A DNA stretch of 64,000 nt from the NCBI GenBank assembly GCA_965214605.1, contig OZ243961.1, positions 1,472,001 to 1,536,000 on the forward strand, given 5' to 3'. The notes under the pieces were generated by a model. That model worked only from the letters and a program-made list of their open reading frames with translations, was not told the origin of the DNA and made no database searches. A program made the translations under genes and the position numbers. Numbering within the stretch: position 1 is the stretch's first letter; each line of letters begins with the position of its first letter. The DNA comes from an uncultured Candidatus Binatia bacterium. Lineage in GTDB: Bacteria > Desulfobacterota > Binatia > Bin18. Below, piece after piece: positions 30,716 through 52,458 of this stretch.

Positions 30716-31117
30716 ATGGCCTCTCAAACCCCGACGCGTATCCCAGGCGAGGTTCTGTCCGCGGCCGGGACACTTAGCCTCAACGTGGGCCGCCCGACCA
30801 ACTCGCTGACCGTGCTTAATATCGGTGACCGGCCCGTCCAGGTTGGCTCACACTATCACTTCTTTGAGGCTAACCGGGCCTTGCGCTTTGACCGCAAAGC
30901 TGCTTTTGGCCGGCATCTAGATATGCCGGCCGGCACCGCAGTCCGCTTTGAACCCGGAGAAGCGAAAGAGGTCAACCTCGTCCCGTTTGGTGGCCAGCGT
31001 ATCGTGTTGGGTTTAAATGGGCTGACTGAGGGCAGTACGACGGATGCGAAGGTTCGGCAACGAGCACTAGACACCGCGCGAGAACACGGGTTCGTCATGA
31101 CCGAGGAGATACGGTAA
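30716..31117 (+). CDS. ureB: Urease beta subunit
   Basis: [32 protein letters not shown]. Confidence 0.96.
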
Positions 31118-32678: not shown

Positions 32679-32696
32679 TCAGAGACAGGGGGAAAT

Positions 32697-33221: not shown

Positions 33222-33228
33222 CAGCCGT

Positions 33229-33933: not shown

Positions 33934-34748
33934 GCATTTTGCCTCTGGAATCCGGGCTTCCTCTCTCCGCCCAGCGTACAAAAGCGAAATCACAAAAGGG
34001 AAGACAGTGGAGACAGGCGACAAGTGATCTCTACCGGCTTTTAAGTTAAACCAAAATGGCCGACTGCCGAGGCATTGGAGGACCTACGTGAGACTAATCT
34101 TGAACCGGGGCTAGAGCCCATTTCTCCTATCATCCAGTCCGGCGCTCAATCCGACTGACTTGGCGTTGTCGCACAATTCTCAAACACGTCTAGTCCGGTC
34201 TGATTTCGGCTGATTTTGTCCACTTCACCATTTCCCGAAGGAACTTGCCGCTGTAGATGACAACCACTCAATCGCCGTTGGGGACTTCCTGCTTGTGCAT
34301 ATCACTTTTTGCAATAGCAATCCATGGGCTTGACGACTAGGGCAGGTCTGAACAAGTGGAGTGTGGGAAGAGTGACGAAGCGGCCCCGGCAGCTGAGCGG
34401 ACGCTGGAACCGGTGCCGGGTGGGGAACTGGCTCATGCTTCGACGAAGCGGCGCCCAGGGCGCGAGCCAGGCTTTCCGAAGGCCGGTCGGGGGCGCCGGC
34501 CGGCCCCGCTTTGGGCGCTGCGGTGCGTGCCCGGTGGGCAGGTGCTTGAACGTAAGGGTGCTGGCACGGAGCTCCCGGGGCAAAGCGTCGCCCCCAAGCG
34601 CCCTGCTTGAACCCACAAACCGCCCCTGGGCGGGTCCGATGACCCCCCGGCCTTCCACCCCTGGACCCACCGATCTCCCGGGCTCGCCAATACTGGGGTT
34701 CTCCAGACCTTCCCTAGGGGCTAGACAGGGGGCGGGCGAGCTGGAAAG

Positions 34749-35960
34749 GTGGGGGAGATGCGAGGAGCGAGTGCCCTGGAGCCCCCTGATGGGGGTAGGC
34801 AACTTCTGTGTCTGCTGCCGAGCCTGCACGACACCCTGATTGCGCGGCGGATCGCGATGCTCACCCGCAGCGGCTTCGCGGTGGAAGCGGCCGCGTTCGC
34901 CCGCCCGGTGGGCTTTGGCCGGGCCCCGGGGTGTCCGGTCGTGCGGTTGGGGGCGCTGCCGCCTCGGCAGTATCTCCGCCGCCTGCCCACGCTGCTGCGA
35001 GCGGCGGGCCAAGTGCGGGCGCTGATCCGCCGGCACGCGCTCGTGTACGCGTTCGGCCCGGACCTGGCGTGGCTGGCGACGCTGGCGGGGGCGGGGCTCG
35101 CGCGGCCGCTGGTGGTGGAGGTGGCGGACATCAAGGCGATCCAAGTCGAGCGGAGCTGGCGCGGGCGCGTGGTGCGGGCCCTCGACAAACGGGTGCTCAG
35201 CCGCAGCGGGTTGCTCGTCCTGACCGCGGCGGGCTACGAGACCTACTACCGGGAGGAGGTGGGCGTGGCGACGCCCACGCTCATCATCGAGAACAAGCTG
35301 GACCCGGCGTTCACCGCGTCGCTGCCGCCGCCCGCCCCGCCGGGGCGCGGGCAGGCGCAGGCCCGGCCCTGGCGGATCGGCTGGTTTGGCCGCCTGCGCG
35401 ACGCGTGGACGTTGCGCGTCCTGGATGAGGTAACCCGGCAGGCCCCCGGGCAGTTCACCGCCGTCCTCGCGGGGACGGTCTCGCCGTTCCTGCGCGAGTT
35501 CTCGGCGCGGGTGGCGGCCAATCCGCACCTGGCGTACCGGGGGGGCTACCGGTATCCGGACGACCTGCCGGCGCTCTACGGGGGGATCGACCTCACGATG
35601 GCGTGCCATACGCCCCGGCGGCCCGACCACTGGTCGCGGGGCAACCGGTATTATGAAGCCTGCCTGTTTCGCAAGCCGGTGCTGATCCGGGCGGGCCAGG
35701 CGCCTGCCCACGAGATCCGTCGCCATGGCATCGGCCTGATTATTGAGGCCGGGGGGGTCCGCGAGGCGGTGGCCACGCTGAGAGGGATTCGGGCGGCGGA
35801 TATGGCGCACTGGCAGGAGAATCTGGCCGCCCTGCCGCCTTCCGTCTACACCACCACGACGGAAGGCGCCGCGCTGCGGGCGGCGCTCGTCCGGCTGGTT
35901 GAGGCTTGGAGCCCCCCCCCCCCCCCCCCCCCCCCCGCGGCGACTTGCCCGCCTGGCTGA
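34749..35960 (+). CDS. Glycosyltransferase, GT-B fold, succinoglycan ExoL-like
   Basis: RRIAML...GF.V..AAF.R, EVADI, IENKLD, WRIGWFG.LR, YRYPDDL..LY..ID, NRYYEA; very GC-rich; C-terminus runs through a poly-C tract. Confidence 0.72.
   Translation: MGEMRGASALEPPDGGRQLLCLLPSLHDTLIARRIAMLTRSGFAVEAAAFARPVGFGRAPGCPVVRLGALPPRQYLRRLPTLLRAAGQVRALIRRHALVYAFGPDLAWLATLAGAGLARPLVVEVADIKAIQVERSWRGRVVRALDKRVLSRSGLLVLTAAGYETYYREEVGVATPTLIIENKLDPAFTASLPPPAPPGRGQAQARPWRIGWFGRLRDAWTLRVLDEVTRQAPGQFTAVLAGTVSPFLREFSARVAANPHLAYRGGYRYPDDLPALYGGIDLTMACHTPRRPDHWSRGNRYYEACLFRKPVLIRAGQAPAHEIRRHGIGLIIEAGGVREAVATLRGIRAADMAHWQENLAALPPSVYTTTTEGAALRAALVRLVEAWSPPPPPPPPAATCPPG
35912..35936 (+). repeat. 25-nt poly-C homopolymer at the 3' end of the glycosyltransferase
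   Basis: Directly visible. Confidence 0.9.
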
Positions 35961-36500
35961 CTGAGCAGGCGCGGGCGGGGGGGCGGGCGCCCGCCGCCTC
36001 TCCCTTCTTCCTGGACGGCGCTGACAGCCGCCCCCCCCTCTTCCGGCGCCCGACAAGGGGGACAAGCCGGACAGCGCGCCCGGGAAGGGGCGTGAGGGGA
36101 GGGGACCGGGGCATCCGGTGGGGGCGTGGGCGTCCTGCGCTCACCAAGCGGCGTCGCTCCCTCGCCATGGGGTGCCGTCAGCCCCCCCGCCCGCAGCCCC
36201 GTTCTGGCGCGCTCTGTGGGCCCCGACGCAGGCCCGGTTCGCGGTCCGGGCGGATGCCCTGAAGCTCCTCCGGGCCGCCTGCACTGGGGGGGCGGCGCTG
36301 GTCAACGTGCGGCGCGCCCCGGGGGAGCCCCGCGCGCTCATCCGGGCGGTCCCTGAGCAGGCCGCGCCGCTCGCCGCCCTGTGGCACGCTTGGCACAGGG
36401 CGCATCTCTCGGCAAAGGTCCTTCCAGCGGGGAAGCGATATCAGCAGACGAACGAGGCCAGAGACAAGTTCCACTACTCCATGCTTAAGAGAGTAAAGAC

Positions 36501-36808
36501 ATGGCCAGTGTTGCAGAACGGGACATCTCTTTGCCGCCGGAGCCCGCCGGGCTGAGGGCTGTTGGGGGTGAGGGGGACGATCATGCTGTCCTGGGCCGTT
36601 CCAAGTGATCCCGACATCATCGGCTACCGGTTCCGGCTGAAAGGCTCGCGGGAGTCCGACTGGGGGTGGGTGGCGCGCAGTCAAGGCATGGTGGCGGCAC
36701 CGCACCCTGTTGCCTGGCCTGACCAACGGAAACCTCTACCAGGTGCAGTTGCGTGCGGGAAACGGTCGGGGCTGGGGACCGCTGAGCGAGACGGTGGCGA
36801 AAGCGTAG
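36501..36808 (+). pseudogene. Fibronectin type III domain gene, frameshifted
   Basis: PPEPAGLRAVGGEG / TIMLSWAVPSDPDIIGYRFR / LPGLTNGNLYQVQLRAGNGRGWGP joined across two frameshifts. Confidence 0.7.
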
Positions 36809-37171
36809 GCACCGGAGTCGTGACGTGGCGGCGGTGGAGCGGTGAAGAACTCTCCCCCGTACTCTCGACCGACGGAGACAGGTAAGACCCTGTTGAAAAG
36901 TCACTGCAGGTTCGTGCAGTCTCTTGATGCCGTGAGTGCAGCAAGGCTGAAATCTGCTCTTTTTTCCTAGTCGCTGTGGTAGGATCTCAGTCGTACTGCC
37001 CGTCCCGAGCCTTACCCTTGTGCCTGGCGCTGGGAGTGACCTAATGGGGTCATACTGTCACGGAATTCCACCAGAGACTACCTAAGTGTCCGGAACCTGC
37101 TGGCCGAAGAAGGATTCTGAGCTTTGACCGGGGCGCTTATACGATGCAGTAACTCTCCTCCCCGCCACCGC

Positions 37172-37283
37172 TGGTCGAGACAAGCCTAGAGTTATCTGTT
37201 AATGTTACATCACAATCTCGAGATTGCGTATCGCAATAAAGAACGCATGGTCGAGACGAGCCTAGAGTTATCTGTTAATGTTA
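37172..37283. repeat. Two 36-bp direct repeats (TGGTCGAGAC[A/G]AGCCTAGAGTTATCTGTTAATGTTA) separated by 40 bp
   Basis: 37172-37207 and 37248-37283, one mismatch; spacer contains the palindrome CAATCTCGAGATTG. Confidence 0.85.
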
Positions 37284-37357
37284 TCCTTTTTGACCATAGT
37301 TGTGGGTAAATACCTGCGACAATACCCGAAGTCCCACTCCCTACCGGGATAAGCATT

Positions 37358-39412
37358 ATGATGTTGGATGTCAACGGAAATACTTCTCCACCTGCCGGCT
37401 CATCATTTAGGAGACTTGTCCACGGATCCGCTTCCGTTATTCTCTCCTCCTGTATCGTGCTCACCGGCGCGTTGTTACTGGCGAACATCCTGCGCCTCTA
37501 TTCCCCGGGCCCGCCCATGGACGGTCTGCTTGGCGTTGTGTTCCTTACACTGGGCTTATCGCTGTTGCGTCATCGTGCGCCCTGGCCACGGGCGCCTCTA
37601 CTCTGTTTCACCGCCTTGGCTGCCCTTTACGGCGTGGGCGTCGCCATTGAGAGCAATTTCGAAGGCGTCCGCAACTTCGTCTCCATCCTGTACGCGGCCA
37701 TCATCTTCCTGTTCGGGTTTCGCAATGCGCCCGAATTGGCCCGGCACAGCGGCCTGATTGTGCTACTCGTGATCGTAGCGACGGTCATTACCATATTCCA
37801 GTGGCTACCCACGTTCCCCACCCTTAACCCGCACCTGATCTCGTCAATTTACGTCTATATACTCCTCACCATCGGATTAATCCTGGCTGCTCGCGGCTGG
37901 CAGGGGAGGGCCACCCTTGTGTTCTTGTTGGTCATTCCCACAGCTGCCGTCTTCGCCAACCGCTCGCTGGTGTTCGCAGCGTTGGGGAGCTATGCAGCGT
38001 ATTGGGCCGGGAAGGTCGTCCTGCGAGACCGACTGCGGGTCACAGGACTGGCTGTATGTCTCGGTTTCTTGATCTGTCTCCCGCTGCTCTTTGTGTTGTC
38101 GTCAGCGGTACCGCTCAATGAAGAAGAAGCCTTCCGAGAGCGCACTAGTCGACACCTTCTTCAAAATGGGCGTCAGATCTTGTGGAAGGTGGCGGTGGCC
38201 CACATTGCGGCAGCTCCCTGGTTTGGCCATGGGCCGGGTGCTGAGCTGAGTGCTGGGATGCATTCACCGCTGTCGCCAATCGACGGAGAGAAAGGGGCGG
38301 GATCGGTGTCCTGCTTGGAACAGGCTGGTGCTCCTGGCCTTGCTAGGGATTGTGACCTGTTGCTGGACATCAAGCACCTCTTGATTGGAACAGATGGGAA
38401 GGGAGAAATGCTGTGGAGCTGGAATATGCGGTCGCCGATTGCCTTCTGGAGGGGGATCGAGCTGGCCGGCACGCCGCCTCGTGTGACGGCCTTGCGCTTG
38501 CCTAACTCTGGCTTGAGCGGCCACCTCCCGGCACAGCTGGGGGAACTCGATGGGCTGCAAGAGCTCAACCTTGCGCGCAATCAGCTCACCGGTCCCATCC
38601 CGCCGGAGCTGGGCAAGTTGCCCAAGCTACGACGCCTGGCACTCCAAAGGAACCGGCTGACGGGGCCCATCCCGCCGGAGTTGGGCAAGCTCTCTGATCT
38701 TTCGGAATTATGGCTCAGCAACAACCGGCTGAATGGTGCCGTGCCGACAACCCTGACGCGGCTCGACCGCTTGTCTGGGCTGCGTTTAGCCAACAACGAA
38801 TTTGTCGCGCCCTTTCCAAGTCCGCTCTATGCCATAGCGGACCACGACCTCACGCAGGCCCTGTTCTGCCTGCCTATGCCCCAAACCCCGCCCGAACTGC
38901 TCGCGGACTGCACTGCCCTGCTGGCCATGCGGGACATTTTTGCTGGCGACGTTCCCCTCAACTGGACTCTCTCCTCACAAATCGGATTCTGGCAGGGCGT
39001 TGTAGTGGCCGGCACGCCGCCTCGTGTGACGGCCTTGCGCTTGCCTAACTCTGGCTTGAGCGGCCACCTCCCGGCACAGCTGGGGGAACTCGATGGGCTG
39101 CAAGAGCTCAACCTTGCGCACAATCAGCTCACCGGTCCCATCCCGCCGGAGCTGGGCAAGTTGCCCAAGCTACGACGCCTAGCACTCCAAAGGAACCGGC
39201 TCACCGGGCCCATCCCGCCGGAGTTGGGCAAGTTGCCCAAGCTACGACGCCTGGCACTCCAAAGGAACCGGCTGACGGGGCCCATCCCGCCGGAGTTGGG
39301 CAAGTTGCCCAAGCTACGACGCCTGGCACTCCAAAGGAACCGGCTGACGGGGCCCATCCCGCCGGAGTTGGGCAAGCTCTCTGATCTTTCGGAATTATGG
39401 CTCAGCAACTGA
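37358..39412 (+). CDS. O-antigen ligase/Wzy-family membrane protein with LRR insertion, N-terminal part (ends at frameshift)
   Basis: Multiple TM helices, then Wzy_C-like GRQILW..A...I...PWFGHG (38168-38233), then Cys-capped 24-aa LRRs (LTGPIPPELGKL). Confidence 0.8.
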   Translation: MMLDVNGNTSPPAGSSFRRLVHGSASVILSSCIVLTGALLLANILRLYSPGPPMDGLLGVVFLTLGLSLLRHRAPWPRAPLLCFTALAALYGVGVAIESNFEGVRNFVSILYAAIIFLFGFRNAPELARHSGLIVLLVIVATVITIFQWLPTFPTLNPHLISSIYVYILLTIGLILAARGWQGRATLVFLLVIPTAAVFANRSLVFAALGSYAAYWAGKVVLRDRLRVTGLAVCLGFLICLPLLFVLSSAVPLNEEEAFRERTSRHLLQNGRQILWKVAVAHIAAAPWFGHGPGAELSAGMHSPLSPIDGEKGAGSVSCLEQAGAPGLARDCDLLLDIKHLLIGTDGKGEMLWSWNMRSPIAFWRGIELAGTPPRVTALRLPNSGLSGHLPAQLGELDGLQELNLARNQLTGPIPPELGKLPKLRRLALQRNRLTGPIPPELGKLSDLSELWLSNNRLNGAVPTTLTRLDRLSGLRLANNEFVAPFPSPLYAIADHDLTQALFCLPMPQTPPELLADCTALLAMRDIFAGDVPLNWTLSSQIGFWQGVVVAGTPPRVTALRLPNSGLSGHLPAQLGELDGLQELNLAHNQLTGPIPPELGKLPKLRRLALQRNRLTGPIPPELGKLPKLRRLALQRNRLTGPIPPELGKLPKLRRLALQRNRLTGPIPPELGKLSDLSELWLSN

Positions 39413-40377
39413 ATGGTGCCGTGCCGACAACCCTGACGCGGCTCGACCGCTTGTCTGGGCTGCGTTTAGCCAACAACGAATTTGTCGCGCCCTTTCCAAG
39501 TCCGCTCTATGCCATAGCGGACCACGACCTCACGCAGGCCCTGTTCTGCCTGCCTATGCCCCAAACCCCGCCCGAACTGCTCGCGGACTGCACTGCCCTG
39601 CTGGCCATGCGGGACATTTTTGCTGGCGACGTTCCCCTCAACTGGACTCTCTCCTCACAAATCGGATTCTGGCAGGGCGTTGTAGTGGCCGGCACGCCGC
39701 CTCGTGTGACGGCCTTGCGCTTGCCTAACTCTGGCTTGAGCGGCCACCTCCCGGCACAGCTGGGGGAACTCGATGGGCTGCAAGAGCTCAACCTTGCGCG
39801 CAATCAGCTCACCGGTCCCATCCCGCCGGAGCTGGGCAAGTTGCCCAAGCTACGACGCCTGGCACTCCAAAGGAACCGGCTGACGGGGCCCATCCCGCCG
39901 GAGTTGGGCAAGCTCTCTGATCTTTCGGAATTATGGCTCAGCAACAACCGGCTGAATGGTGCCGTGCCGACAACCCTGACGCGGCTCGACCGCTTGTCTG
40001 GGCTGCGTTTAGCCAACAACGAATTTGTCGCGCCCTTTCCAAGTCCGCTCTATGCCATAGCGGACCACGACCTCACGCAGGCCCTGTTCTGCCTGCCTAT
40101 GCCCCAAACCCCGCCCGAACTGCTCGCGGACTGCACTGCCCTGCTGGCCATGCGGGACATTTTTGCTGGCGACGTTCCCCTCAACTGGACTCTCTCCTCA
40201 CAAATCGGATTCTGGCAGGGCGTTGTAGTGGCCGGCACGCCGCCTCGTGTGACGGCCTTGCGCTTGCCTAACTCTGGCTTGAGCGGCCACCTCCCGGCAC
40301 AGCTGGGGGAACTCGATGGGCTGCAAGAGCTCAACCTTGCGCACAATCAGCTCACCGGTCCCATCCCGCCGGAGCTG
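38464..40377 (+). repeat. Near-identical tandem LRR-module repeats (543-bp unit with nested 72-bp LRR repeats)
   Basis: Units start at 38464, 39007, 39687 and 40230 (spacings 543, 680, 543); 680 = 543 + 2x72 - 7. Confidence 0.92.
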
Positions 40378-43300
40378 AAAGAGCTGCGCAACCTAGTATT
40401 GACCGGAAACCGCCTGACGGAGCTGACATCGCATCCCGTCGCCAACCACGACGTGAGCAGTCAGTTTCGCTGCTCGTCGCTGCCCAGCGCTCTGGTTCGG
40501 GATTGCATCGCGCTGTTGGAGGTGCGGGATGTCTTGGCTGGGGGTGCGGTACTGAACTGGGATGACTCGACCCCGATTCAGCTTTGGCAGGGCGTCGTGG
40601 TGGACAAGATCCGCCAACGCGTGGTCGCACTGGACTTGTCTGGCAAAAGGCTGCGCGGTCGGCTTCCGAAGGAACTTGGAGCATTGGATCAGCTTCAGTC
40701 GCTGCATCTCGATCACAACCTGCTCAGCGGTGCCATCCCCCCTGAACTGGGACGATTAGCCCACTTACAGGAGTTGGTACTGGACGCCAACATGTTGGTA
40801 GGCCCCATTCCGGTGGAGATCACACAACTTGCGAATTTGACGGTATTGTCGCTGCGCGACAATGGGTTGACCGCCGTTCCGTCGAGGCTGGAGGAACTTG
40901 GTAAACTTTCACGCCTGAGCCTGGGCGGCAACGACTTTTACGATCCTCTCCCGCCAGCCCTTGTAGAGATCAACCGCGATGTTGGCGACGATCTACTGTG
41001 TTCCATGATAGCTCGTCAGGATACCTTCAGAGGCCTGCGGCAAGACTGCCGCGCTCTGCTGGACGCACGAGACATCTTGACCGGAAGTGGCGAGCTCAAC
41101 TGGAACGACACCCTACCCATCGGTCTGTGGCGCGGCGTCCGGCTTGCGCATGCTTCAGAACCGCGTGTCGTCGCCCTGCGTTTGCCGGGGAGTGGGCTGA
41201 CCGGCGAGATTCCTCCCCAACTAGGCCACCTGACTAGGCTGGTTTCGCTTCGACTAAACGGGAATCATCTTACCGGCACTATCCCGGCGAAGTTAAGCTC
41301 GCTCAGAGAGCTGGTGGAACTCCGGCTTGAGAATAACCGCCTGAGCATGAGCAGTCCAATCCTCGATCTGAACCTCTTGAATAACTCGCTGCTTGTCAGT
41401 CTCGGCGGCAACCGCCTTGACGCCGTGAAAGCGTCAAGCGCTTCCAGAGACTTGGCACTGGTGACGGCTACAGCTAGCGACGGGTCCAAGCACGTTGCAC
41501 AGCCGGTGCCGGATATCATCGGCAAGGAGCTCTTCTGCCGCCCGTCGGCTTCTCCCACGGAGCTACTCGCCGATTGCGAGGCGCTTCTGGCGGCCCGCAC
41601 CGCATTGATCGGCAAGGGGGCAGCGCCGCTTGTGAACTGGAGCGACTCGATACCTATCGGTTTTTGGCGAGGAGTGACACTTAGCGCAGAGACGCCGCCG
41701 CGGGTGGTTGCGCTAGATCTGTCGCAGATGCGGCTTCACGGGCGTATCCCTCCCGAACTTGGCGTACTGGAGCGACTCCACTCCCTGCGGTTACATCGCA
41801 ACCGACTCGCTGGGCCGATTCCAGCCGAACTGGAGGCCCTGGATAACTTGCAAGAGCTGATGCTCGGTATGAACGCCTTGACCGGCTCTATCCCGCCAAC
41901 ATTGGGGAAGCTCTACCAACTCAAGGTGTTACATCTACGCAGGAATCGACTCACTGGTTCTATCCCGGAGGAGCTTGGCGAACTCAAGAACCTGCAAACG
42001 CTCGTGCTGGACGGCAACGCTTTGACGGGCTCCGTTCCGGTGACACTCGCGAGTTTGCCCAACCTAGAAGAACTGTGGCTGAAGGGAAACCGCTTGAGCG
42101 GCGAGATTCCGGCGGAACTCGCGGAGCCCGGCAGACTGGCCGTGCTGGATCTTGGGGACGATGTGTCTAGCGTCGGTTATGATGCTGGCGGTCTCCGGTT
42201 CTGCGAGGCGGCTCGTGGCAAAGACAACGGTTTGGGGCAAGATTGCACCGTGTTGCTCGACGTGCGAGAGAGGCTCATGGGTACGGCTAGGTTGAATTGG
42301 GATATCACGACGCCGATCAATGATTGGCAAGGCGTCGAGGTATCTGGCGTGCCCGCACGCGTGACGGCGCTGAACTTGGCCCGTACAGGGATAAACGGGA
42401 ATATTCCTCCCGAACTGCACAAATTGGACCGGCTCATCGAACTGCGCCTCAGCGACAACGGGCTCACCGGTCCCATCCCGCCCGAACTCGGCAAGCTGGT
42501 GCATCTGCAAGTGCTGGCACTCAATAATAACGCCCTGACCGGCTGGCTGCCTAGAGACTTGGCCAAAATACCCGGCCTGCGCGAGGTGCGGCTCGGCGGC
42601 AATGCGACAGAACACAAGCGGTTGTGCCAGCCCTCGTTGCTGGACAGTCCAGGCCTGTTGGACGACTGCACCGTGCTGCTTGCCGTCCGCGATCGGCTGA
42701 GGGGTGACGCGTTCCTCAATTGGAACAAGAGTACGCCCATAGAAGCCTGGAAGGGTGTGACGGTGGGCGACGGTGGGCCGGAGCGCGTGGTAGCGGTCGA
42801 GTTGCCTAGGGCTGGGCTGAACGGCCGGTTGCCGTCGGAATTGCTGGCGCTGAAACGACTCGTGTCCTTGCGCCTGGAGGACAACCGGCTGACCGGTTTC
42901 ATCCCGGCTGGTCTGGACCATCTTAGGGACCTAGTGAGATTGCGGCTGGACGGCAACGATTTCTCCGGTTGCGTGCCGTCTGCTCCGGCGAGGATGCAGG
43001 GCCGTGATCTGGAGCTGGATATGCTATGCGGCCCGTCCGCATGGGCCAAACCGAAGCTCTACGACGACATGGCCGTGCTGATAAGCGTGCAGGACGCTCT
43101 AGCCGGTAATGCCGAGCTGAACTGGGACTTCACCCGTCCTGTGACCTCTTGGCAGGGCGTAACCGTGGGAGGCGAGCCGCCTCGGGTAGAGCAAATCATG
43201 CTGTCACGGATGGGCCTTGACGGACACATCCCACCGCAACTGGAGGCACTAGATCGACTCGTGGCCCTGCACCTCGACGGCAATCGGCTCACCGGCACCG

Positions 43301-43899
43301 TGCCGTTAGAACTCGGCAACCTAGAGCATTTGAGGCTCCTATGGATCAATCACAATCAACTCAGCGGAAGCCTGCCGTCGGAGTTGGAGAGATTCGCCGG
43401 ACTTACATCCATAAGGCTCCATGAAAACAACTTTACTGGCTGTGTCTCACATCCGTTGCACGGGCTGCGTAGGGAGTTAGCCGCCTCATCTGGCCTCCCC
43501 GAGTGCGTCGTGGCGGAGAGTGATACACAAGGTTTCAACCTCAAACGCACGTTAATCGAGGGAGCCCATCAGTGGTCCTTATGGCGGCCCGCCATCACGA
43601 CGAGCAAGACGGCTCACAATCTCGTTTTGCAAGTAGGGTTGCAAACCGGGATCATCGGCATAGCCGTGCTGCTCCTGTTGTTCGTATCCCTGATCTTCGG
43701 CCTAGTGGCGCCACAGGGTGAGGGAATTGGACCTACGCGACGGTTTGCATTGGCGTGTATCGTCACGATCATCCTTCACAACGCCTTCGAGGTCTTCTTG
43801 TTGCAGAATGCGCTCGTCCTAATGACCATAACCTGGCTGCTGATCGGTCTCTCCACGGGCGTGGTCCACGCCGGCGAAACATGCAAAGGAAGCCAATGA
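39397..43899 (+). CDS. Same gene, C-terminal part: eight further capped LRR modules plus the ligase HN motif and final TM helices
   Basis: Repeated DC..LL..RD...LNW...W.GV caps; AHNLVLQVGLQTGIIG at about 43612; LHNAFE TM segment. Confidence 0.8.
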   Translation: MAQQLNGAVPTTLTRLDRLSGLRLANNEFVAPFPSPLYAIADHDLTQALFCLPMPQTPPELLADCTALLAMRDIFAGDVPLNWTLSSQIGFWQGVVVAGTPPRVTALRLPNSGLSGHLPAQLGELDGLQELNLARNQLTGPIPPELGKLPKLRRLALQRNRLTGPIPPELGKLSDLSELWLSNNRLNGAVPTTLTRLDRLSGLRLANNEFVAPFPSPLYAIADHDLTQALFCLPMPQTPPELLADCTALLAMRDIFAGDVPLNWTLSSQIGFWQGVVVAGTPPRVTALRLPNSGLSGHLPAQLGELDGLQELNLAHNQLTGPIPPELKELRNLVLTGNRLTELTSHPVANHDVSSQFRCSSLPSALVRDCIALLEVRDVLAGGAVLNWDDSTPIQLWQGVVVDKIRQRVVALDLSGKRLRGRLPKELGALDQLQSLHLDHNLLSGAIPPELGRLAHLQELVLDANMLVGPIPVEITQLANLTVLSLRDNGLTAVPSRLEELGKLSRLSLGGNDFYDPLPPALVEINRDVGDDLLCSMIARQDTFRGLRQDCRALLDARDILTGSGELNWNDTLPIGLWRGVRLAHASEPRVVALRLPGSGLTGEIPPQLGHLTRLVSLRLNGNHLTGTIPAKLSSLRELVELRLENNRLSMSSPILDLNLLNNSLLVSLGGNRLDAVKASSASRDLALVTATASDGSKHVAQPVPDIIGKELFCRPSASPTELLADCEALLAARTALIGKGAAPLVNWSDSIPIGFWRGVTLSAETPPRVVALDLSQMRLHGRIPPELGVLERLHSLRLHRNRLAGPIPAELEALDNLQELMLGMNALTGSIPPTLGKLYQLKVLHLRRNRLTGSIPEELGELKNLQTLVLDGNALTGSVPVTLASLPNLEELWLKGNRLSGEIPAELAEPGRLAVLDLGDDVSSVGYDAGGLRFCEAARGKDNGLGQDCTVLLDVRERLMGTARLNWDITTPINDWQGVEVSGVPARVTALNLARTGINGNIPPELHKLDRLIELRLSDNGLTGPIPPELGKLVHLQVLALNNNALTGWLPRDLAKIPGLREVRLGGNATEHKRLCQPSLLDSPGLLDDCTVLLAVRDRLRGDAFLNWNKSTPIEAWKGVTVGDGGPERVVAVELPRAGLNGRLPSELLALKRLVSLRLEDNRLTGFIPAGLDHLRDLVRLRLDGNDFSGCVPSAPARMQGRDLELDMLCGPSAWAKPKLYDDMAVLISVQDALAGNAELNWDFTRPVTSWQGVTVGGEPPRVEQIMLSRMGLDGHIPPQLEALDRLVALHLDGNRLTGTVPLELGNLEHLRLLWINHNQLSGSLPSELERFAGLTSIRLHENNFTGCVSHPLHGLRRELAASSGLPECVVAESDTQGFNLKRTLIEGAHQWSLWRPAITTSKTAHNLVLQVGLQTGIIGIAVLLLLFVSLIFGLVAPQGEGIGPTRRFALACIVTIILHNAFEVFLLQNALVLMTITWLLIGLSTGVVHAGETCKGSQ

Positions 43900-43927
43900 A
43901 AGGCAACGGCTCCTTATTAGAGGGCGC

Positions 43928-45301
43928 TCATGACCATCGCATTCCAGCATGGCGGACCAGCTTGAGAGCCGAGGTCCACAAAAACGCCACGTCGGCGGGC
44001 CGGAGCAGCAGAGTGGCAGACATGGACAATTGGGTGGTTCTCTGGAACGTAATCCACAGGATGAAGCTGCGGCAGAGAAGGCTGCCGGTCAAGGCCCATG
44101 CAGCGCCGTGCAACCCCCACGTCGGATAAAGGACAAAGAAAAGCACGCCGTTGGCAGTGAGGCCGAGCCACATGGCATAGGAGAAGACCTGGGGAAGGTT
44201 AACGCCCCGGAAGTAGGTGGCGAAGATCTCGGCGCCAGCATAGGCCAGTACACCGATGGACATGATCCAGGTCAAATGGACGACCGGAGCAAAGGCTTCC
44301 GAGAGAAGCAGGGGCACTAGGTGGGTGCTGACGGCGAACCAGACCAGCAGCAGCCCTCCCATGGTTGACCAGGTCACGCGGGCGCAGAAGGCGGCAAGTT
44401 CGGGCCTCCCAGAAGCACTGTCGGCCGTCCGCGGCAGCAGATAGGCTGAGACTGCAGTCTGAATGAAGTTACTCTTCGTGATCAGAGTATTGCTTGTGGC
44501 GAAGAGCCCGATGTCGGCGCGATCAGCCACATTGCCCAGCAGCAGACTCCCCACTCGGGATTCGAAGGACTGGCCAACTCTCGCCGGATACTCTTTGAGG
44601 CCGTATAGAAGCACCTCTCGCAACCCCTCCCAGCTCGGCAGCTCCAAGGTCAGACCGCAATGCTGCCTTAAGTCCAGAACACAAGCCCCGACCATTGCCA
44701 AATGCCCCAATGCCAACGCCAGGACTGCGCCGCTGACGCCTAGGTTCAGTCCCCACACCAAAACTACGACAGCAGCCGCTCCCACTCCCGCACGGAGGAA
44801 GGAGAATAACGCCAGTCGGCCGAATCGCCGCAGCCCCTCTAGCTGCAGGATGATGGCGGAGACAAGGGAAGATATGGGGATCAGGAGCATAGCCATGTAG
44901 AAGGAACTCGTGCTGGCGTTGCGGAAAAAATCAAGGTCGCTATGAATCAGCGGTAGTGCTGCAATGATGGCGACCGTACTCCCAATCAGACAAAAGACGA
45001 CCGCAATCGACACACCCCGCGAGATGCTGATCCGCTTCGTGATAATGAGGTATTGCGCACCGTGGCCAGAGCCCAAGGTGACTAGGGCCCCGGCGAGGCT
45101 TCCAAATAAAACGCAGACCGTATAGGCACCGCGGCCTTCGGGCAGAAGCGTATAGGCAAGAAGACTTTGGGTTACTACGTTTAGGGTCAGGACAATTCCC
45201 CGGGTGATCAGCAGGACTGTTACCTCCTGTCGGCCGGTGGAGGCTGGTCCCGATTGGGTGGGAGGCGTAATAAGTCTCTCCTTACAAAGCCGATTGCTCA
45301 C
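43928..45301 (-). CDS. wzx: Oligosaccharide/O-antigen flippase (Wzx, MOP superfamily)
   Basis: About 12 hydrophobic segments; LLPEGRGAY, LLYGL, IGLF, P.WGL.GAAWA patterns. Confidence 0.8.
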   Translation of the reverse strand: MSNRLCKERLITPPTQSGPASTGRQEVTVLLITRGIVLTLNVVTQSLLAYTLLPEGRGAYTVCVLFGSLAGALVTLGSGHGAQYLIITKRISISRGVSIAVVFCLIGSTVAIIAALPLIHSDLDFFRNASTSSFYMAMLLIPISSLVSAIILQLEGLRRFGRLALFSFLRAGVGAAAVVVLVWGLNLGVSGAVLALALGHLAMVGACVLDLRQHCGLTLELPSWEGLREVLLYGLKEYPARVGQSFESRVGSLLLGNVADRADIGLFATSNTLITKSNFIQTAVSAYLLPRTADSASGRPELAAFCARVTWSTMGGLLLVWFAVSTHLVPLLLSEAFAPVVHLTWIMSIGVLAYAGAEIFATYFRGVNLPQVFSYAMWLGLTANGVLFFVLYPTWGLHGAAWALTGSLLCRSFILWITFQRTTQLSMSATLLLRPADVAFLWTSALKLVRHAGMRWS

Positions 45302-45770
45302 TTACATCGAGATGCCGAACGCCTATATTCTATGCGCAGGGGCCTGATGCGCGCAGGTTTTATAAGCGACTCTACGCCTCAGCAGGGGTGAGCGGCTAGT
45401 TGGTGACGATCTGCGGGGATATCGGCTCCTTATAATAAGCTTTTTTGTCCCCGTGTCAAATATTCTCCACGTACACCACCGCCATACTAACCGTCGTTAT
45501 CTCCACCCGTCGGCCGGTTTGTAGCTTTTGAAAGGCTGCAGGAACCCCATGTTGATATCACGAATACCGGGGTATATGAGGTAAGACTTCGAGAGGTTGG
45601 AAGAGGCTATAGAGGTAAGCTCAGCGTTCGTTGGAGGCTGGTCACCGACGACGCTTTTCAATGTTGCGTTGGTTAACACAACCCTGGAATTGGAAGGCTC
45701 GTGCGGCTACCTCTTTATCAAAACTGTCCGAAAGTCTTGCTCATCTCATAAGGAGAAAGGCTGGAAACCC

Positions 45771-47879
45771 ATGAAGAAACGCTGGAAAACGACGATGTTT
45801 CCCCCCCTTGCCGTTCTGAGATTCTTTCTCAACCTCGGTCTTGCGGCACTGCTGCCGGTGACGGCAAGCTGTGCGCATGAGGTTGATCCTCCGCCGAACG
45901 TGCTCGTCATCTTCGTCGACGACCTCGGCTACAACGACGTGAGCTTCAACGGCGCGACCGAGATCAAGACGCCGAACATCGACCAGCTGGCGAAAGAAGG
46001 CGTGATCTTCGCCAACGGCTACGTGGCCGCTCCGACCTGCGGCCCGTCGCGTGCCGGCCTGATGACCGGGCGCTACCCGGCACGGTTCGGCATGGAGTTG
46101 AATCTGGCCTACGCGCCTTTCGACCCTGACCACGGTCTGCCAGTGGAGGAAACGACCTTTGCCACGTACCTCCAGGACTCCGGCTACCGCACCGGCCTCG
46201 TCGGCAAATGGCAGCTCGGCGCCGCGCCGCCGTTCCACCCGCTCAACCGCGGCTTCGATTCCTTCTTCGGCTTCCTCGCCGGTGAACATGACTACTTCCG
46301 CATCGACGTCACGCGCTCTCCACTCCATGTTGGCTGGCTCCCGCTCAGCGACAACCGGGGCGCGGTCGGGTTCACCGGCTACCTCACCGATGCGCTGACC
46401 GAGCGCGCGGTGGACTTCATCCGCGAGGAGTCGGAGGCGCCCTTTTTCCTGTATCTGGCCTACAATGCCCCGCATACGCCCCTGCAGGCGCCGCCGGAAC
46501 TCGTCAAGAAGTATGCTCACGTCGCGGACGAGAGGCGGCGCGTGTACCTGACGATGGTCGATTCGCTGGACTACAACGTGGGCCAGGTGCTGGACGCACT
46601 GCGGGAAACGGGCCAGCGGGACGATACCCTCGTGTTCTTCCTCAGCGACAACGGTGGCGTGTATCCCCGGCCCAGTTGGGAGAACCAGACTTGGGCGGAC
46701 AACTCTCCGTTTCGCGGCGGCAAGACCAGCTTCCACGAAGGCGGCATTCGCGTGCCGTTCGTCGCCTCCTGGCCGGCCCGTTGGCCGCGCGGCGTGACCT
46801 TCGAGCCGATGGTCATCAGCCTGGATATCGCGGCCACCGCGCTCGCCCTGGCCGGCGTCGCCGACCCGGCGCAGCCTCTCGATGGCGTCAACCTCGACCC
46901 CTTCGTTCGCGGAGAGGCCACCGGCCCTCCGCACGACGCCCTCTTCTGGCGCCGCGTGTTCCCCCGGGACTGGTCCAAGACCGTCTACATCGTGCGCGCC
47001 GGCGACATGAAACTCATCAAGGCCACCCGCGATGGGGACGCCGCGCTCTTCGATCTGCGCACCGACCCCGGTGAGACGCGCGACCGGGCCGGCGAGAAGA
47101 CGGATGCCGTGGCGCGGCTGGCCGCGCTCTGGAACGAATGGAACCGGGAGAACCTGGGATACCGCTTTACCGACGAGACCACGTATAAAAATGTTCTCCA
47201 CGAGACAAGAAAGAGGTTGGCCGCGAGGTCGATGGTAATGCCCCCGTTCCAAATAGGATCCAAAAAGGAAATGACCGATATGCAGGTGACGCCCTCGTGT
47301 TCCAACGGAGTCGTGGTGCCGGAGCCGGACCGCAATCCCGGCCTGGTCGCCGACTGCGCGGTCCTGATGGAAGTGAAGGACATGTTCGTCGAGGAAGTCC
47401 ACACCTGGAGGTTTACCCGGCCGCTCCAGACCTGGGAGGGCGTCACCATTGGCGGTCCACCGCTTCGGGTCCGCGCGTTGTCGCTCGCTCAGCGCGGTCT
47501 CCCTGGCCGCCTCCCCTCGAAGCTTGCGGAACTGGACAGGCTTGAAGAGTTGAGGCTCAGCGGCAACCGTCTGGCCGGCGGGATTCCGCCGGAGCTGGGC
47601 CGTCTGACCGGGCTGCGGCTCCTCGCCCTTAGCGATAATCTCCTGACCGGCGAGCTGCCGCCGGAGCTGGGCGCGTTGTCGGACCTGGAGGAGTTGCGGC
47701 TCCGAGGCAATCGGCTGACGGGGGCGATTCCGCCGGAGTGGGGCGGGCTGCCCCGACTGCGGCTCCTTAGGTTGGCGGACAACGGCCTTGTCGGCTGCAT
47801 TCCGCCGGCTTTGCGGGAGGTCGAAAGTCACGACCTGCAAAGGCTGGGCCTTGTGTCTTGCATTCCGGCTACGCCATAG
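45771..47879 (+). CDS. Exported formylglycine-type sulfatase fused to a C-terminal capped LRR module
   Basis: Signal/possible lipobox (TASC), PNVLVIFVDDLGY, CGPSRAGLMTGR, AYNAPH, SDNGG, EGGIRVP; then DC.VL...W.GV cap and about five LRRs. Confidence 0.88.
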   Translation: MKKRWKTTMFPPLAVLRFFLNLGLAALLPVTASCAHEVDPPPNVLVIFVDDLGYNDVSFNGATEIKTPNIDQLAKEGVIFANGYVAAPTCGPSRAGLMTGRYPARFGMELNLAYAPFDPDHGLPVEETTFATYLQDSGYRTGLVGKWQLGAAPPFHPLNRGFDSFFGFLAGEHDYFRIDVTRSPLHVGWLPLSDNRGAVGFTGYLTDALTERAVDFIREESEAPFFLYLAYNAPHTPLQAPPELVKKYAHVADERRRVYLTMVDSLDYNVGQVLDALRETGQRDDTLVFFLSDNGGVYPRPSWENQTWADNSPFRGGKTSFHEGGIRVPFVASWPARWPRGVTFEPMVISLDIAATALALAGVADPAQPLDGVNLDPFVRGEATGPPHDALFWRRVFPRDWSKTVYIVRAGDMKLIKATRDGDAALFDLRTDPGETRDRAGEKTDAVARLAALWNEWNRENLGYRFTDETTYKNVLHETRKRLAARSMVMPPFQIGSKKEMTDMQVTPSCSNGVVVPEPDRNPGLVADCAVLMEVKDMFVEEVHTWRFTRPLQTWEGVTIGGPPLRVRALSLAQRGLPGRLPSKLAELDRLEELRLSGNRLAGGIPPELGRLTGLRLLALSDNLLTGELPPELGALSDLEELRLRGNRLTGAIPPEWGGLPRLRLLRLADNGLVGCIPPALREVESHDLQRLGLVSCIPATP

Positions 47880-48026
47880 CGGACGCATTACCGATGGCCC
47901 GGCGAGGTTTCACCCTCCGAGAACAAGTCGAAATGTCTTTGAGCCGGCAGAAGTGAAGGGGGATTTGAAACTGAGCCACTACTTACGCGCCTTGAGGAAT
48001 TAGCGTGACGACGTTTGCCCGAAAGG

Positions 48027-48080
48027 GTCATTCCTGCGAAAGCGGAAATCCGATGGATGCTGAGTCAAGCCCGGCATGAC
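48027..48080. repeat. REP/RPE-type palindromic element GTCATTCCTGCGAAAGCGGAAATCC...GGATGCTGAGTCAAGCCCGGCATGAC
   Basis: GTCAT...ATGAC termini and internal hairpins typical of this dispersed repeat class. Confidence 0.7.
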
Positions 48081-48201
48081 GTGCAGACGGGGCCTATGCC
48101 TGCGGATGATGGATGGTATCCTGGCAACAACTTCTGGCAGAGACACTTCAAGAGGGGTTAACGAGTTGCCAAGTGCGTAATATCACTCGCTTGAGATACT
48201 C

Positions 48202-48747
48202 GTGCTGATCAAAAGAACTCTCGTTGACCGGATACGCAGAGGGAGCGCCGTGATCCGAGCGCCTCGCTTGCTGAAAAAACTCGCGGGGGGGCTTCGTGCA
48301 GTCCTTTATCACCACCTTGGAGAACCGTGCCTTTTTACCCGGCGAATCGGAGTTTGTACGCCACCCGAGTTGTTCGAGGCACACATCGAGTGTCTCGTGT
48401 GCGACTACGACATCATGAGCCTGGATGATGTCCTGGATGGCACCCTTCCAAAGCGGCCACTGCTCATCACCTTCGATGACGCCTATCGGTCAGCGCTTGA
48501 CGTAGGCGCGCCTATTTTTCTGAGAGGAACATTGCGTCGAATGTGCACCACCGCGGTGTTATTCGAGCGGTGTTATTCGAGCTGCTCTCTCTATTTAGCG
48601 TCAAGACCGCAAATGCGCCTGTTTTGTCTATGGCGCCTCTCCCAATCGACAAGTCAGCGGCCTCTGCGCATTCTTCTTCGCAACAAACAACAGACCTGCG
48701 CCTCAGGCGCCGTCCGGCAGGATTCTTCTAGTGGCCGGGCTGCCTAG
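48202..48747 (+). pseudogene. Polysaccharide deacetylase (NodB-like), N-terminal fragment
   Basis: VLYHH, PELFE.H...L...Y.I.SL, LLITFDDAY; similarity lost after about 48520 and no H-x-x-x-H motif seen. Confidence 0.7.
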
Positions 48748-48919
48748 CCCATCAGGGCGGCGGCTATCCAGCCTTTATCTCGGCCCAAGACTATCACCAG
48801 CTCGCAAAAGATAACCCTTTCCCTTTCTTGGCCGCCAGTAGAACATCGCACCCTTCCTGGCGTGTCAGGCTTGCTCGTCCTTATGAAAAATCTGGGTCAG
48901 AACCCGGACCGTCAGCCCA

Positions 48920-50419
48920 TCAAACCTTCAGCGTCATCTCGATAAAGCCGAAGCTGGCCCCATCACCGACAAAAATTCGATCGACAATACTGTCGCCAAA
49001 GACATGGGCAAAGAAAATATTGACGTTGACATGCCGGTTGACTGTGTAGTTCAGTGAGGTCTCAATGATCTGGAACAGATCGTGTTTGCCAAACACCGGC
49101 CGGCCGACATAGCCAAATCCAGTCTGTCGGTTCTCCAGTGTAGCTCCAGCCCCCTGGTACCACAGGTCATTGTCTTCACTCACCCGGATATTGTGAAAGT
49201 CGGTGCGCCAGACCAAGCCCTTGAGCGGTTTGAGAATAAGCTGCAAGAAGGCGTCTTCGCTATTCATCAGGTTGTAGAAGGTCGTAAACGAATATACCCG
49301 GGCGGTGGGCAGGATCTGAAAGAAGGTCTCGTGATCGTCATCGTGGGGATCATCATCGCCCGAACTGCGATTATAGCCAACCCGAATCCACGGCTGCCAG
49401 GGCAATGTCCGGGGCTGCCAGCCGATCTCAAACGCCAGCGCCCAGGCCGCATGGTCCAGCCTGCCCCAGTCACCGCCCTGTCCCACGCCCCAGCCCATCA
49501 GGTCAATCGGGCCGGCTGAAGTCGGCCTCACATAGATTAGGTTGCCGCCGGCGGTGTGGACAGCGATATGCTGGCGGTCGGCGTTACGGACTGCAGCAGG
49601 CCGGTTGTCGGTCGGTCGCAGGCCGCGCCCGTCGGCATAATAGATGTAAAACAGACGTGCATCACTGGTTTGGGCAAACGATGGTCGGGTGATGTTGAAG
49701 CCAGTGTACAACAGGTCAATGTCCTCTATCATCTCAAGGCCGGCCAGATCAAACCCACCCTGGGTCGGGTGGGAGCCGTGCACAGTCAAGTTATAGGCGT
49801 CTTTGGTATAGCTCAGGGTGAAGCCGTCATACGAGCGCCCGACGTGCGACCAGCCAAACGGGCCGATCAGGCGTTGCGAGACGCGGAAGCGCTTGATCCA
49901 ATCGGTAGTCGGGTCCTTGCTCAGCACTTCGGCCCCTTCGGCGATCAGGTGTCGCCCGCCCTTGATTGTCAGCCCCGGTACGCCCAACTGCTTGAGCGTC
50001 AGGTGCGCCTGTTTGAGAAAAACGCCCGAGTCGTTCCTGCGGCTGCTGTGAGCACGGTAGACCGCCCCCAGGCCAAAGGCGGCCTGCGGAGCGGGTGCTG
50101 AGGCGTCATCGGGCAGGCCGAGCAGGGAAGAGTTTTGTCCTTCCACATAGACATCAAAGAAGTTCTCCGACCACTTTAGCCCGAACTTGGCAACGGTTGC
50201 CGCATAGGCGTAGGAACTGTCTCCGGATGATCCCTCGAACCAGTCCCAGAACTCTCCCCGTACCCGCAGGCTGGCCGCCAGCGACAGCTTGGAGGAAATC
50301 TGAGACCGCGCCGTGTTTGCCTGGATCCGGGCCGGCAGACAGACCAGGAAGCAGACGGCGAGCAGCATGCTAGTCAGCCCCCTCCTCGCGCGAATCAAGG
50401 CAGGCGGTCGTTTTATCAT
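48920..50419 (-). CDS. Alginate export (AlgE-like) outer-membrane beta-barrel protein
   Basis: Signal peptide, R.R.E.WDWF, LKQA.L, QRLIG..GWS.VGRSYDG, SGDDDP.D..HETF. Confidence 0.78.
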   Translation of the reverse strand: MIKRPPALIRARRGLTSMLLAVCFLVCLPARIQANTARSQISSKLSLAASLRVRGEFWDWFEGSSGDSSYAYAATVAKFGLKWSENFFDVYVEGQNSSLLGLPDDASAPAPQAAFGLGAVYRAHSSRRNDSGVFLKQAHLTLKQLGVPGLTIKGGRHLIAEGAEVLSKDPTTDWIKRFRVSQRLIGPFGWSHVGRSYDGFTLSYTKDAYNLTVHGSHPTQGGFDLAGLEMIEDIDLLYTGFNITRPSFAQTSDARLFYIYYADGRGLRPTDNRPAAVRNADRQHIAVHTAGGNLIYVRPTSAGPIDLMGWGVGQGGDWGRLDHAAWALAFEIGWQPRTLPWQPWIRVGYNRSSGDDDPHDDDHETFFQILPTARVYSFTTFYNLMNSEDAFLQLILKPLKGLVWRTDFHNIRVSEDNDLWYQGAGATLENRQTGFGYVGRPVFGKHDLFQIIETSLNYTVNRHVNVNIFFAHVFGDSIVDRIFVGDGASFGFIEMTLKV

Positions 50420-51377
50420 GTGGGCTTTCCCCTCTCTCCCTCTTGTATAGACAGGAAGCTCTGTACTAGGCGGTCGCTCCGAGAGAACAGCTGGCGAGAA
50501 CTTGGCCGGCAGGCTGTACGCCAAGGCCACATACGTAGGCACTCAGCCACATGAGTACTTCGGGCGTAGACAGGAGTTCGGAACGGGACAGGAAGTCGGC
50601 CGCCGCGGCCTCGACACTGCCTCCGGCCCCGACAATGCCAGCCACCCCGCCACGCGTGTTCTTGTTAAGGAACAGTACCACGCGTAGGTCGCGCCTTCGG
50701 ACCTCTGGACAAACAGACTGAAGATAACCATAGTCGTCGCGGCCAGAAACAGCGTAGCCATCCGGAGAAAGAGGATCAAGGCCCAGGCTCTTGGCCAAGA
50801 ACGCGCTGCCCACATATCACACCCGGCCGGTCAAACTGCTCCTGACTGTCAGTCTGTCGGAAAAGGCGTCCTCTAGCATCCGGGGAGAAACGTTCGTCAA
50901 TCCAAACACCTTGTTGACGCCGCACAACGGGACAAAGGCGCATCGGAGCGAACATCATAGAGGAGTGATGACAAATGAAACCCCAATAGCGCCAACCGAA
51001 ACAGCAGGAAGCTCTCGTAACTGTCTGCCTGCCCGATGTCCATAACCGGTAGTGACTCTCACACCAGTAGCCCAGGTATGAGTCGGATGCGTCCTAAAAC
51101 GCCGGCACGTCCCAATAAGCACGTCCGTCATAGTTTTTACACAGGACGCTCAGCAGATACAGTTTGTATGTAGAAGTCGGCCATATTGCGGAGGCTAGTA
51201 AAGAATCTTTTGTCAGCGATATGCCGGGGGTAGAAAGCGTGCTCTTTCAGTGGCCGATCTTCCTTCAGCGCGTATGGTGCGCCACAGCCACCAAGTCGTG
51301 ATAAAACATACTCCCGAGACGTCTGTGGCCGGCCCTGCAATAGCATCAACACTGCCGAGATACCCATTTATAAGTCT

Positions 51378-52438: not shown

Positions 52439-52458
52439 AGGTCCATAACACCCCCACC

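Follow-up and report, generated by a model that had tools for sequence, protein, structure and literature searches.

A horizontally acquired mosaic island in a Candidatus Binatia genome carries a gene for a Wzy_C-type membrane enzyme with a leucine-rich repeat array in a predicted periplasmic loop

We analyzed a 64,000-nt stretch of the genome of an uncultured Candidatus Binatia bacterium (contig OZ243961.1, positions 1,472,001 to 1,536,000; hereafter the window, whose own coordinates are used below). An initial annotation had described there a seven-part surface-polysaccharide system decorated with leucine-rich repeats (LRRs), consisting of a glycosyltransferase, an FN3 remnant, a Wzy/ligase-LRR protein, a Wzx flippase, an exported sulfatase-LRR protein, a deacetylase remnant and an alginate export-type porin. 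Most of these observations were right, but the seven-part system was only partly supported. The region is a horizontally acquired mosaic that landed in a cyanase gene, between urease accessory genes and a native porin. Its central gene encodes a Wzy_C/WaaL-fold membrane enzyme of about 2,180 amino acids (aa) (37358..43899, + strand), accompanied by a GT4-type glycosyltransferase cassette (34749..35960, +), a divergent Wzx-like flippase of the MOP family (43928..45301, - strand) and an exported sulfatase (45771..47879, +).

The foreign insert measures about 14.4 kb (approximately 34,304 to 48,704) and lies inside the broken cyanase gene cynS. Nucleotide homology to four same-genus genomes (G002, G004, G005 and G007; blastn) ends at position 33,935 and restarts at 48,742 (48,920 in G002), and the insert is absent from the syntenic site in all four. 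A 3' remnant of cynS (34238..34303, -) marks the left boundary and corresponds to aa 121-142 of the genus orthologue (tblastn with G007 cynS; blastn to G007), while a 5' remnant (48705..48868, -) covering aa 1-61 marks the right one (tblastn; blastn to three of the four genus relatives). These two ends flank the insert, which places the insertion within cynS, with the remainder of the operon deleted. Beyond the boundaries, the window holds the urease accessory genes ureG/D/E/F (31117-33933) on one side and ubiE with an X-Pro dipeptidyl peptidase gene (51713-54423) on the other. The gene order in G005, G004 and G007 is ureDEF, ATP-binding cassette (ABC) transporter ATPase, permease, cynS, NMT1_2 binding protein, porin, ubiE and pepX, the match in G007 being limited to the last third of ureF; in G002, ureDEF and the porin are present in the stretch compared, and the gene scan of the interval covers the other three genomes. 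The cyanase/ABC transporter operon, kept between ureF and the porin in those three, is lost from the genome studied here (33934-34303, 48705-48919), in which no match at E<=1e-10 to an intact cynS, its binding protein or its permease was found anywhere.

The composition of the insert falls into at least three blocks, with G+C contents of 0.70-0.74 (34324-36885), 0.56-0.61 (Wzy-LRR and flippase genes) and 0.65-0.68 (sulfatase). For comparison, the value for the whole genome is 0.584, and that of related loci in G041 (OZ242023.1, titled as a gammaproteobacterial metagenome-assembled genome) is about 0.70. Both marks of a genomic island, absence from the syntenic site and deviating composition, are therefore present. 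The island scan found no tRNA and no Rfam family, no integrase or transposase occurred among the Pfam matches of the island's open reading frames (ORFs), and the repeat analysis revealed no boundary repeats flanking the insert.

The central gene is spread over two ORFs (37358-39412 and 39397-43899). It had been ended at 39412, with its LRRs regarded as a decoration; the Wzy_C and LRR parts at 37358-39412 stand, but the gene continues, as the second ORF of 1500 aa consists of LRRs with transmembrane (TM) helices at its end. The first ORF ends in "...LSELWLSN*" and the second starts with "MAQQLNGAVPTTLTRL...", and the joined sequence is found intact twice more within the gene. Indeed, three 300-nt stretches of the gene are 100% identical, with spacings of 680 and 543 nt, and comparison of their DNA revealed that the middle copy lacks 7 nt relative to its two sister copies, which gives the frameshift at 39408..39409 (+). 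Apart from this single deletion, the approximately 2,180 codons are open. The Wzy_C profile matches at positions 3-105 within the N-terminal 341 residues and at positions 124-149 within the last 121 residues. Since these profile halves lie on either side of the repeat array, about 1,700 LRR residues are located inside the Wzy_C domain, bordered by "...APWFGHGPGA" before and "...AHNLVLQVGLQTGIIG" after. The array (38381..43533, +) was resolved by repeat and module analysis into 10 plant-type, SERK-like LRR modules, each opening with a cysteine-containing cap, and Foldseek and VIA comparisons pointed to the ectodomains of SERK, BAK1, ERL1 and PGIP. Judging from the sequence, the LRRs are an insertion within a loop of the enzyme rather than a decoration. 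The window protein also retains R202, R272 and the AHN stretch.

Intact proteins with this layout exist elsewhere. A word-indexed search returned two homologues with 46-47% identity in the membrane part, carrying one and two modules, and a genome scan detected the family in one further record, G041, with three intact paralogues (808, 2368 and 1335 aa); the intact homologues with the same layout (P0005-P0008) measure 633, 808, 1335 and 2368 aa. In an exhaustive profile search, 1.84 billion representatives were screened; 78 proteins passed E<=1e-3 and 28 clusters passed E<=1e-30. Of these 28 members, 26 measured between 593 and 3,250 aa, a strict LRR core motif occurred one or more times in 26, and 22 ended with an H-N-x9-G-xx-G stretch. 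The GxG and HN motifs were 214-2,766 aa apart in the inserted forms versus 58-79 aa in P0035 and P0036, which are among the four nearest short relatives; the remaining two of these four gave no match to the GxG pattern. Pfam Wzy_C matched 41 of 42 short relatives (best 3e-19) as well as the homologue P0008 (32.4 bits). With the alignment as query, none of 400 class genomes, 400 phylum genomes (best five candidates scored per genome in both scans) and 60 G041-relative genomes contained a member of the window's clade, here called type A, at E<=1e-15; with the N-terminal part of the window protein as query, none of 40 relatives did at E<=1e-3. Likewise, a metagenome contig scan yielded only four matches, all of them weak and short (26-130 residues at 31-62% identity). 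The Wzy-LRR family is nonetheless real.

The structure was modelled on the homologue P0005 (633 aa, 47% identical to the window protein), for which AlphaFold2 gave a pLDDT of 84.2 and a pTM of 0.76. The model of this homologue aligned with the O-antigen ligase WaaL (7tpj_B) with a Z score of 19.8 and a root-mean-square deviation of 5.0 Å over 325 of 403 residues, both TM parts being aligned, well above RodA (Z 11.6) and FtsW (Z 10.6). Its residues 333-502 corresponded to the N-terminal portion of plant LRR receptor ectodomains, with matches to SERK1/2 and BAK1 in Foldseek (30-34% identity, target TM-score 0.65-0.71) and to ERL1 (Z 19.9) and PGIP (Z 19.1) in VIA-align. R213 and R285 (P0005 numbering) were invariant and H538 nearly invariant among 48 sequences; from work on WaaL, we take these residues to have a catalytic role.

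O-antigen ligase- and polymerase-type enzymes are usually compact membrane proteins. The family shares with WaaL (PDB 7TPJ; PF04932) the membrane fold, the Wzy_C matches, the two conserved arginines and the H-N-x9-G-xx-G stretch, but it differs by the hundreds to thousands of capped LRR residues between GxG and HN, and sequence identity is only 16%. A profile of the 42 non-inserted relatives matched a single solved chain, 9rmk_A "Oligosaccharyltransferase" (E 3.7e-8, positions 10-351), which we take from its entry to be of PglL type. This O-oligosaccharyltransferase belongs to the same superfamily and has no LRR. As in the plant SERK/BAK1 ectodomains and PGIP, each module comprises an N-cap and four to five plant-type LRRs; unlike these, the modules here are bacterial, stand in tandem (up to about 20), are located within an enzyme loop and are unmatched by Pfam LRRNT_2. 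The parts available to us of accounts on sponge symbionts describe an enrichment of eukaryotic-like proteins and sulfatases, and no LRRs within glycan enzymes (PMC5735121, PMC6306507). The lineage studied here resembles these symbionts in its LRR, FN3 and cadherin-type domains and its many sulfatases. No publication joining Wzy or O-antigen ligase with LRRs appeared in the literature search, as far as the retrieved portions of the texts go.

The gene for the 457-aa flippase (43928..45301), a multi-pass membrane protein, had no Pfam match at E<=10 apart from chance, and its identification as Wzx-like is supported indirectly, through homologues. The G041 orthologue (73% identity) matched Polysacc_synt at 29.4 bits (cut-off 28.2), and full-length homologues with 25% identity matched Polysacc_synt_3, Polysacc_synt and MurJ (best 6.1e-17). 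Another candidate, L034:8656-10011, was rejected as a flippase, having no similarity to the window flippase. The glycosyltransferase upstream was confirmed as GT4-type (Pfam Glyco_trans_4_4, E 3.3e-10). This high-G+C cassette (0.74) has a second copy in the same genome (C1:1084023-1085424; 97% nucleotide identity over 1.4 kb), with a GT20 gene on one side and tRNA synthetase genes on the other.

The association of these three gene types is found again in a second clade of the enzyme. A search of the G041 relatives with the sulfatase-LRR query revealed giant ORFs of 1943-2185 aa in G789, G792, G795 and G803. These proteins, which we call type B, open with 7-9 TM helices at the N-terminus, followed by 8-9 capped modules, a "...LWRLGFEKAMEAPxFGHGLGAL...HNLYL..." signature and then three TM helices. 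Their Wzy_C matches, which score 32.5-37.9 bits and so exceed the cut-off, comprise positions 4-67 ahead of the array and 81-149 behind it. Because the profile is split at 67/81 against 105/124 in the window's clade, the array occupies another point of this loop region in type B. These genes were missed in the scan of G041 relatives with the profile of the window's clade.

The type-B loci (L092-L096) contain two to five GT4 genes and a flippase gene, and often a giant gene plus a paralogue of about 810 aa. G792 has a giant Wzy_C-LRR gene, two GT4 genes and a flippase gene; G795 has a short Wzy_C-LRR gene, a radical SAM gene, a GT1 gene, two giants, two GT4 genes, a flippase gene and two further GT4 genes; G789 has a giant, two GT4 genes, an 811-aa Wzy_C-LRR gene, a GT4 gene and the start of a flippase gene, and the LRR genes and flippase of G803 mirror those of G789. 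The adjoining flippases are 41-46% identical to the window flippase (in G792, 41% over 433 residues, with Polysacc_synt_3 at 5.4e-8; in G795, E 4e-93). Neither a sulfatase nor a porin homologue was found in these four type-B loci. The recurrent unit is an LRR-loop Wzy_C enzyme with a flippase and GT4 genes. The pathway of glycosyltransferase, Wzy and Wzx proposed in the initial annotation therefore stands as a trio, present in the window and recurring in four type-B genomes, but without an initiating transferase in the island.

Taken together, we favor, with a probability of roughly 0.6 for the explanation as a whole, that the mosaic described above carries as its working core a small Wzx/Wzy-type glycan module made of the GT4 enzyme, the LRR-loop Wzy_C enzyme and the flippase. 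A lipid-linked oligosaccharide would be started by a transferase of the host genome, extended by GT4-type enzymes and turned by the flippase to the periplasmic face, where the Wzy_C enzyme would ligate or polymerise it. The LRR array beside the Arg/Arg/His site could be a scaffold that binds the acceptor or the growing chain, and the sulfatase-LRR protein would be an independent exported enzyme whose targeting tail is an acquired module of this kind.

Such a module resembles known Wzx/Wzy-dependent clusters in having a flippase, a Wzy_C-type enzyme and GT4 genes side by side, more fully in G789, G792 and G795 with their two to five GT4 genes; it differs from them in the LRR array of its Wzy_C enzyme and in the missing initiating transferase. 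None was found in the island, and the sole Bac_transf match of the genome lies at C1:1302943, about 205 kb away (WecA-type transferases were not searched for). That gene adjoins a canonical Wzy_C gene, and the genome has further Wzy_C matches outside the island, of which two exceed the cut-off. Because the initiating transferase and further Wzy_C genes lie outside the island, the module would depend on host functions. The island ORFs scanned had no Pfam match to Wzz or Wza, families at which no search was aimed. Separately, in one other Wzy_C gene of this genome (C1:2960701-2961627, 640-aa frame), some 170 residues interrupt the profile at 65/75; these are not a capped LRR insert since the capped module is confined to the island in this genome.

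Several points weigh against this explanation. The two Wzy_C pieces of the window protein scored 27.9 and 18.6 bits, each below the Pfam cut-off of 31.7. The tie between the single GT4 gene of the island and the module is weak, because the cassette is solitary, its second copy stands among housekeeping genes and no homologue of it was found in G041; none was found among the 40 relatives either. The 73%-identical flippase of G041 is encoded beside mnmA and a kinase gene, and some 340 kb separate it from the closest Wzy-LRR gene. The four genomes that carry the association belong to a different Wzy_C clade and amount to few independent cases, because G789, G792, G795 and G803 are related to each other. 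An array of about 1,700 aa would need to fit in the periplasm. On its predicted fold, the enzyme could be a ligase, a polymerase or a protein O-glycosyltransferase, which are not distinguishable here. Finally, the frameshift in the assembly may leave the enzyme inactive in this genome.

This last point leads to the alternative of an island without any working module, in which Wzy-LRR would be a pseudogene among the leftovers of several transfers. Besides the 7-nt frameshift, the debris around the gene speaks for it. A copy of the 5' part of a GT9-like gene (34324..34717, +; G+C 0.70) matches contig C8 and C1:3337372-3337904 by blastn, and an ORF that matches Glyco_transf_9 begins within the latter. 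Downstream of the GT4 cassette, a frameshifted remnant (36025..36885, +) matched the sulfatase-FN3 protein of G041 by tblastn, with 34% identity to P0003 residues 439-535, and an FN3 domain at E 4.9e-4. The FN3 remnant reported previously is therefore real, but instead of standing alone it forms part of the tail of a second sulfatase-FN3 gene. At the far end, a 181-aa ORF (48202..48747, +) may be a truncated N-terminal fragment of a CE4-type deacetylase. Its deacetylase assignment is weak, with one sub-threshold NCBIfam match to PgaB (E 1.1e-3, 17 bits) covering a TFDDA stretch that we take to be the TFDD motif of CE4 deacetylases, and Pfam found nothing in it. The loss of the cyanase operon around the insert also fits with decay, as do the unstable poly-C tracts of the two GT4 copies (25 C at 35912-35936, near the 3' end, versus 44 C at C1:1084183). 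The early caveat that the region might be a partly decayed mosaic was correct.

On the other side, the Wzy-LRR gene is open over its whole length save one deletion and keeps the invariant Arg/Arg/His, and the flippase and sulfatase-LRR genes are intact. Moreover, the 7 nt are present in the sole contig across the site in each of the three covering sequencing runs (from three studies; a fourth gave no cover), and none carried the deleted junction. In read contigs, however, the three identical repeats are merged and rare variants disappear, and the sister repeats would give the same contig, so that these contigs cannot settle whether the deletion is genuine. None of the 13 runs listed was of RNA. 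We regard an island of mere decaying cargo as unlikely. The porin, the sulfatase-FN3 tail, the GT9-like piece and the deacetylase-like piece are native genes or debris and lie outside the core.

The sulfatase gene bears on the alternative that all seven parts form one LRR-organised system. The exported type I sulfatase (45771..47879, +, within ORF 45597-47879) was identified correctly in the initial annotation (Sulfatase 4.5e-67, SGSH_C) and ends with one capped LRR module (47382-47879). The type I sulfatase motif is C-x-P-x-R, found here as CGPSR; the N-terminus is signal- or lipobox-like, with a likely start at 45771. Two FGE-sulfatase genes for maturation are present in the genome (4.37 Mb, 99.99% complete), which thus holds the domain, the motif and the maturation enzyme of a type I sulfatase. 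Among the best 120 of 6,627 homologues, roughly half combined Sulfatase and LRR domains at 51-63% identity, most covering 81-90% of the query and a few shorter ones about 72%, and the remainder had FN3, other Ig-like tails or none. No close orthologue of the sulfatase-LRR protein was found in 400 class genomes (E<=1e-120) or 400 phylum genomes (E<=1e-100), with two candidates scored per genome. The G041 orthologue (62% identity) has an FN3 tail instead of the LRR module and stands alone among housekeeping genes, about 1 Mb from the Wzy-LRR genes. The sulfatase-LRR protein accordingly represents a separate, large and widespread family with a variable C-terminal tail, a neighbour that shares the module type.

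The porin (48920..50542, -) belongs to the Alginate_exp family as proposed (Pfam, 3.9e-21), but not to the system; the gene is native, lies outside the island and is part of the urease/cyanase neighbourhood. It is conserved at the corresponding site of G002, G004, G005 and G007 (81-84% aa identity), all of which lack the island. In alginate-type export the porin is encoded with its polysaccharide genes; the neighbours of this one in G004, G005 and G007 are those of the cyanase/ABC operon.

That these parts would together build or edit a sulfated or acetylated surface glycan, with the modules uniting the Wzy enzyme and the sulfatase and the porin exporting the product, is improbable. It draws on the presence of the same module type in two adjacent enzymes and nowhere else in the genome, on the module tree given below, on the FGE genes and on a G041 locus where a tandem Wzy-LRR pair is followed by a GT1 gene and, at L035:12945-16734, by a sulfotransferase gene (Sulfotransfer_2) and a gene for a PMT_2-type transferase. 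It is opposed by the native porin, the FN3-tailed and solitary sulfatase orthologue of G041, the type-B loci devoid of sulfatase and porin homologues, the large family to which the sulfatase belongs, the differing G+C blocks and the fragmentary FN3 and deacetylase-like parts. As for a sulfated glycan, the sulfotransferase in one homologous locus is in its favor, but the adjacency of the sulfatase is not conserved. The sulfotransferase beside the Wzy-LRR pair hints at a sulfated product in G041.

The capped LRR module has its own distribution. All 13 matches in the genome fall within the Wzy and sulfatase genes, and the modules of the two enzymes share 43-54% identity over the longer matches, which confirms that they carry the same capped module. 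Module matches were also found in 11 of 40 relatives. The 21 ORFs scanned there (in 20 stretches around the better matches rather than at all matching ORFs) contained FN3, He_PIG, Calx-beta, cadherin, reprolysin, SWM repeat, autotransporter and Roc-COR-TIR domains, and no Wzy_C or sulfatase domain. A tree of 34 capped modules separated the relatives' adhesin modules (97/98) from a clade comprising all Wzy modules and the sulfatase module, the latter sitting next to the group of last modules of the Wzy arrays (94/84). The phylogeny proposed earlier thus links the sulfatase module to those of the Wzy enzymes, yet in relatives the module is fused to many unrelated surface domains.

These data also touch two further readings. 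It is doubtful that the array is mainly a eukaryote-like device for host interaction, the Wzy_C part having been co-opted to anchor or help export it and glycan chemistry being secondary: the modules do resemble plant receptor ectodomains, relatives have them in adhesin-like proteins (FN3, He_PIG, Calx-beta, cadherin, autotransporter) and their number changes fast through exact tandem duplications, but the whole family keeps the catalytic-type residues of its membrane part, GT4 and flippase genes lie next to the enzyme genes, and an array that connects TM segments within an inner-membrane fold is predicted to face the periplasm, not the outside. More speculatively, the capped SERK-like module might be a polymer-binding unit and the loop array a built-in ruler or processivity scaffold that takes the place of a chain-length regulator, with tandem duplication setting its length anywhere between 1 and about 20 modules; on the sulfatase, the module would aim the enzyme at the same, possibly sulfated, polymer. 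We give this idea little credence, although it is favored by the array at two loop points in two Wzy_C clades and by the sulfotransferase in one homologous locus.

Members of this family accommodate up to about 2,800 plant receptor-like LRR residues in a predicted catalytic loop, which raises the question of what role a binding array plays at the place where surface glycans are joined. The occurrence of the array at two loop positions in two clades, traveling with particular flippase and GT4 genes, makes the question worth following, and the short intact members (about 600-800 aa) make it testable. For the window itself, the revised map separates foreign from native genes and module from debris, with its showpiece gene broken in the assembly.

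A few other features were recorded in the island and in related genomes. Promoter-like sites in the island numbered 3 against 2.9 expected, with one good site upstream of the flippase gene. A stretch of about 200 nt (47989-48187) is 80% identical to an intergenic region of the same genome (C1:939767-939970) and has no Rfam match. The length difference between the poly-C tracts of the two GT4 copies alters the C-terminal reading frame; the genome contains 15 homopolymer tracts of at least 12 bases, every one of G or C. In G794, a G041 relative, capped LRR modules (C1:149404-155154) lie in a single open frame of 13,334 aa, and the same-family genome G021 encodes an 890-aa LRR-Roc-COR-TIR protein (L067:6570-9239), whose cytoplasmic, defence-like architecture has no relation to that of the proteins with capped modules.

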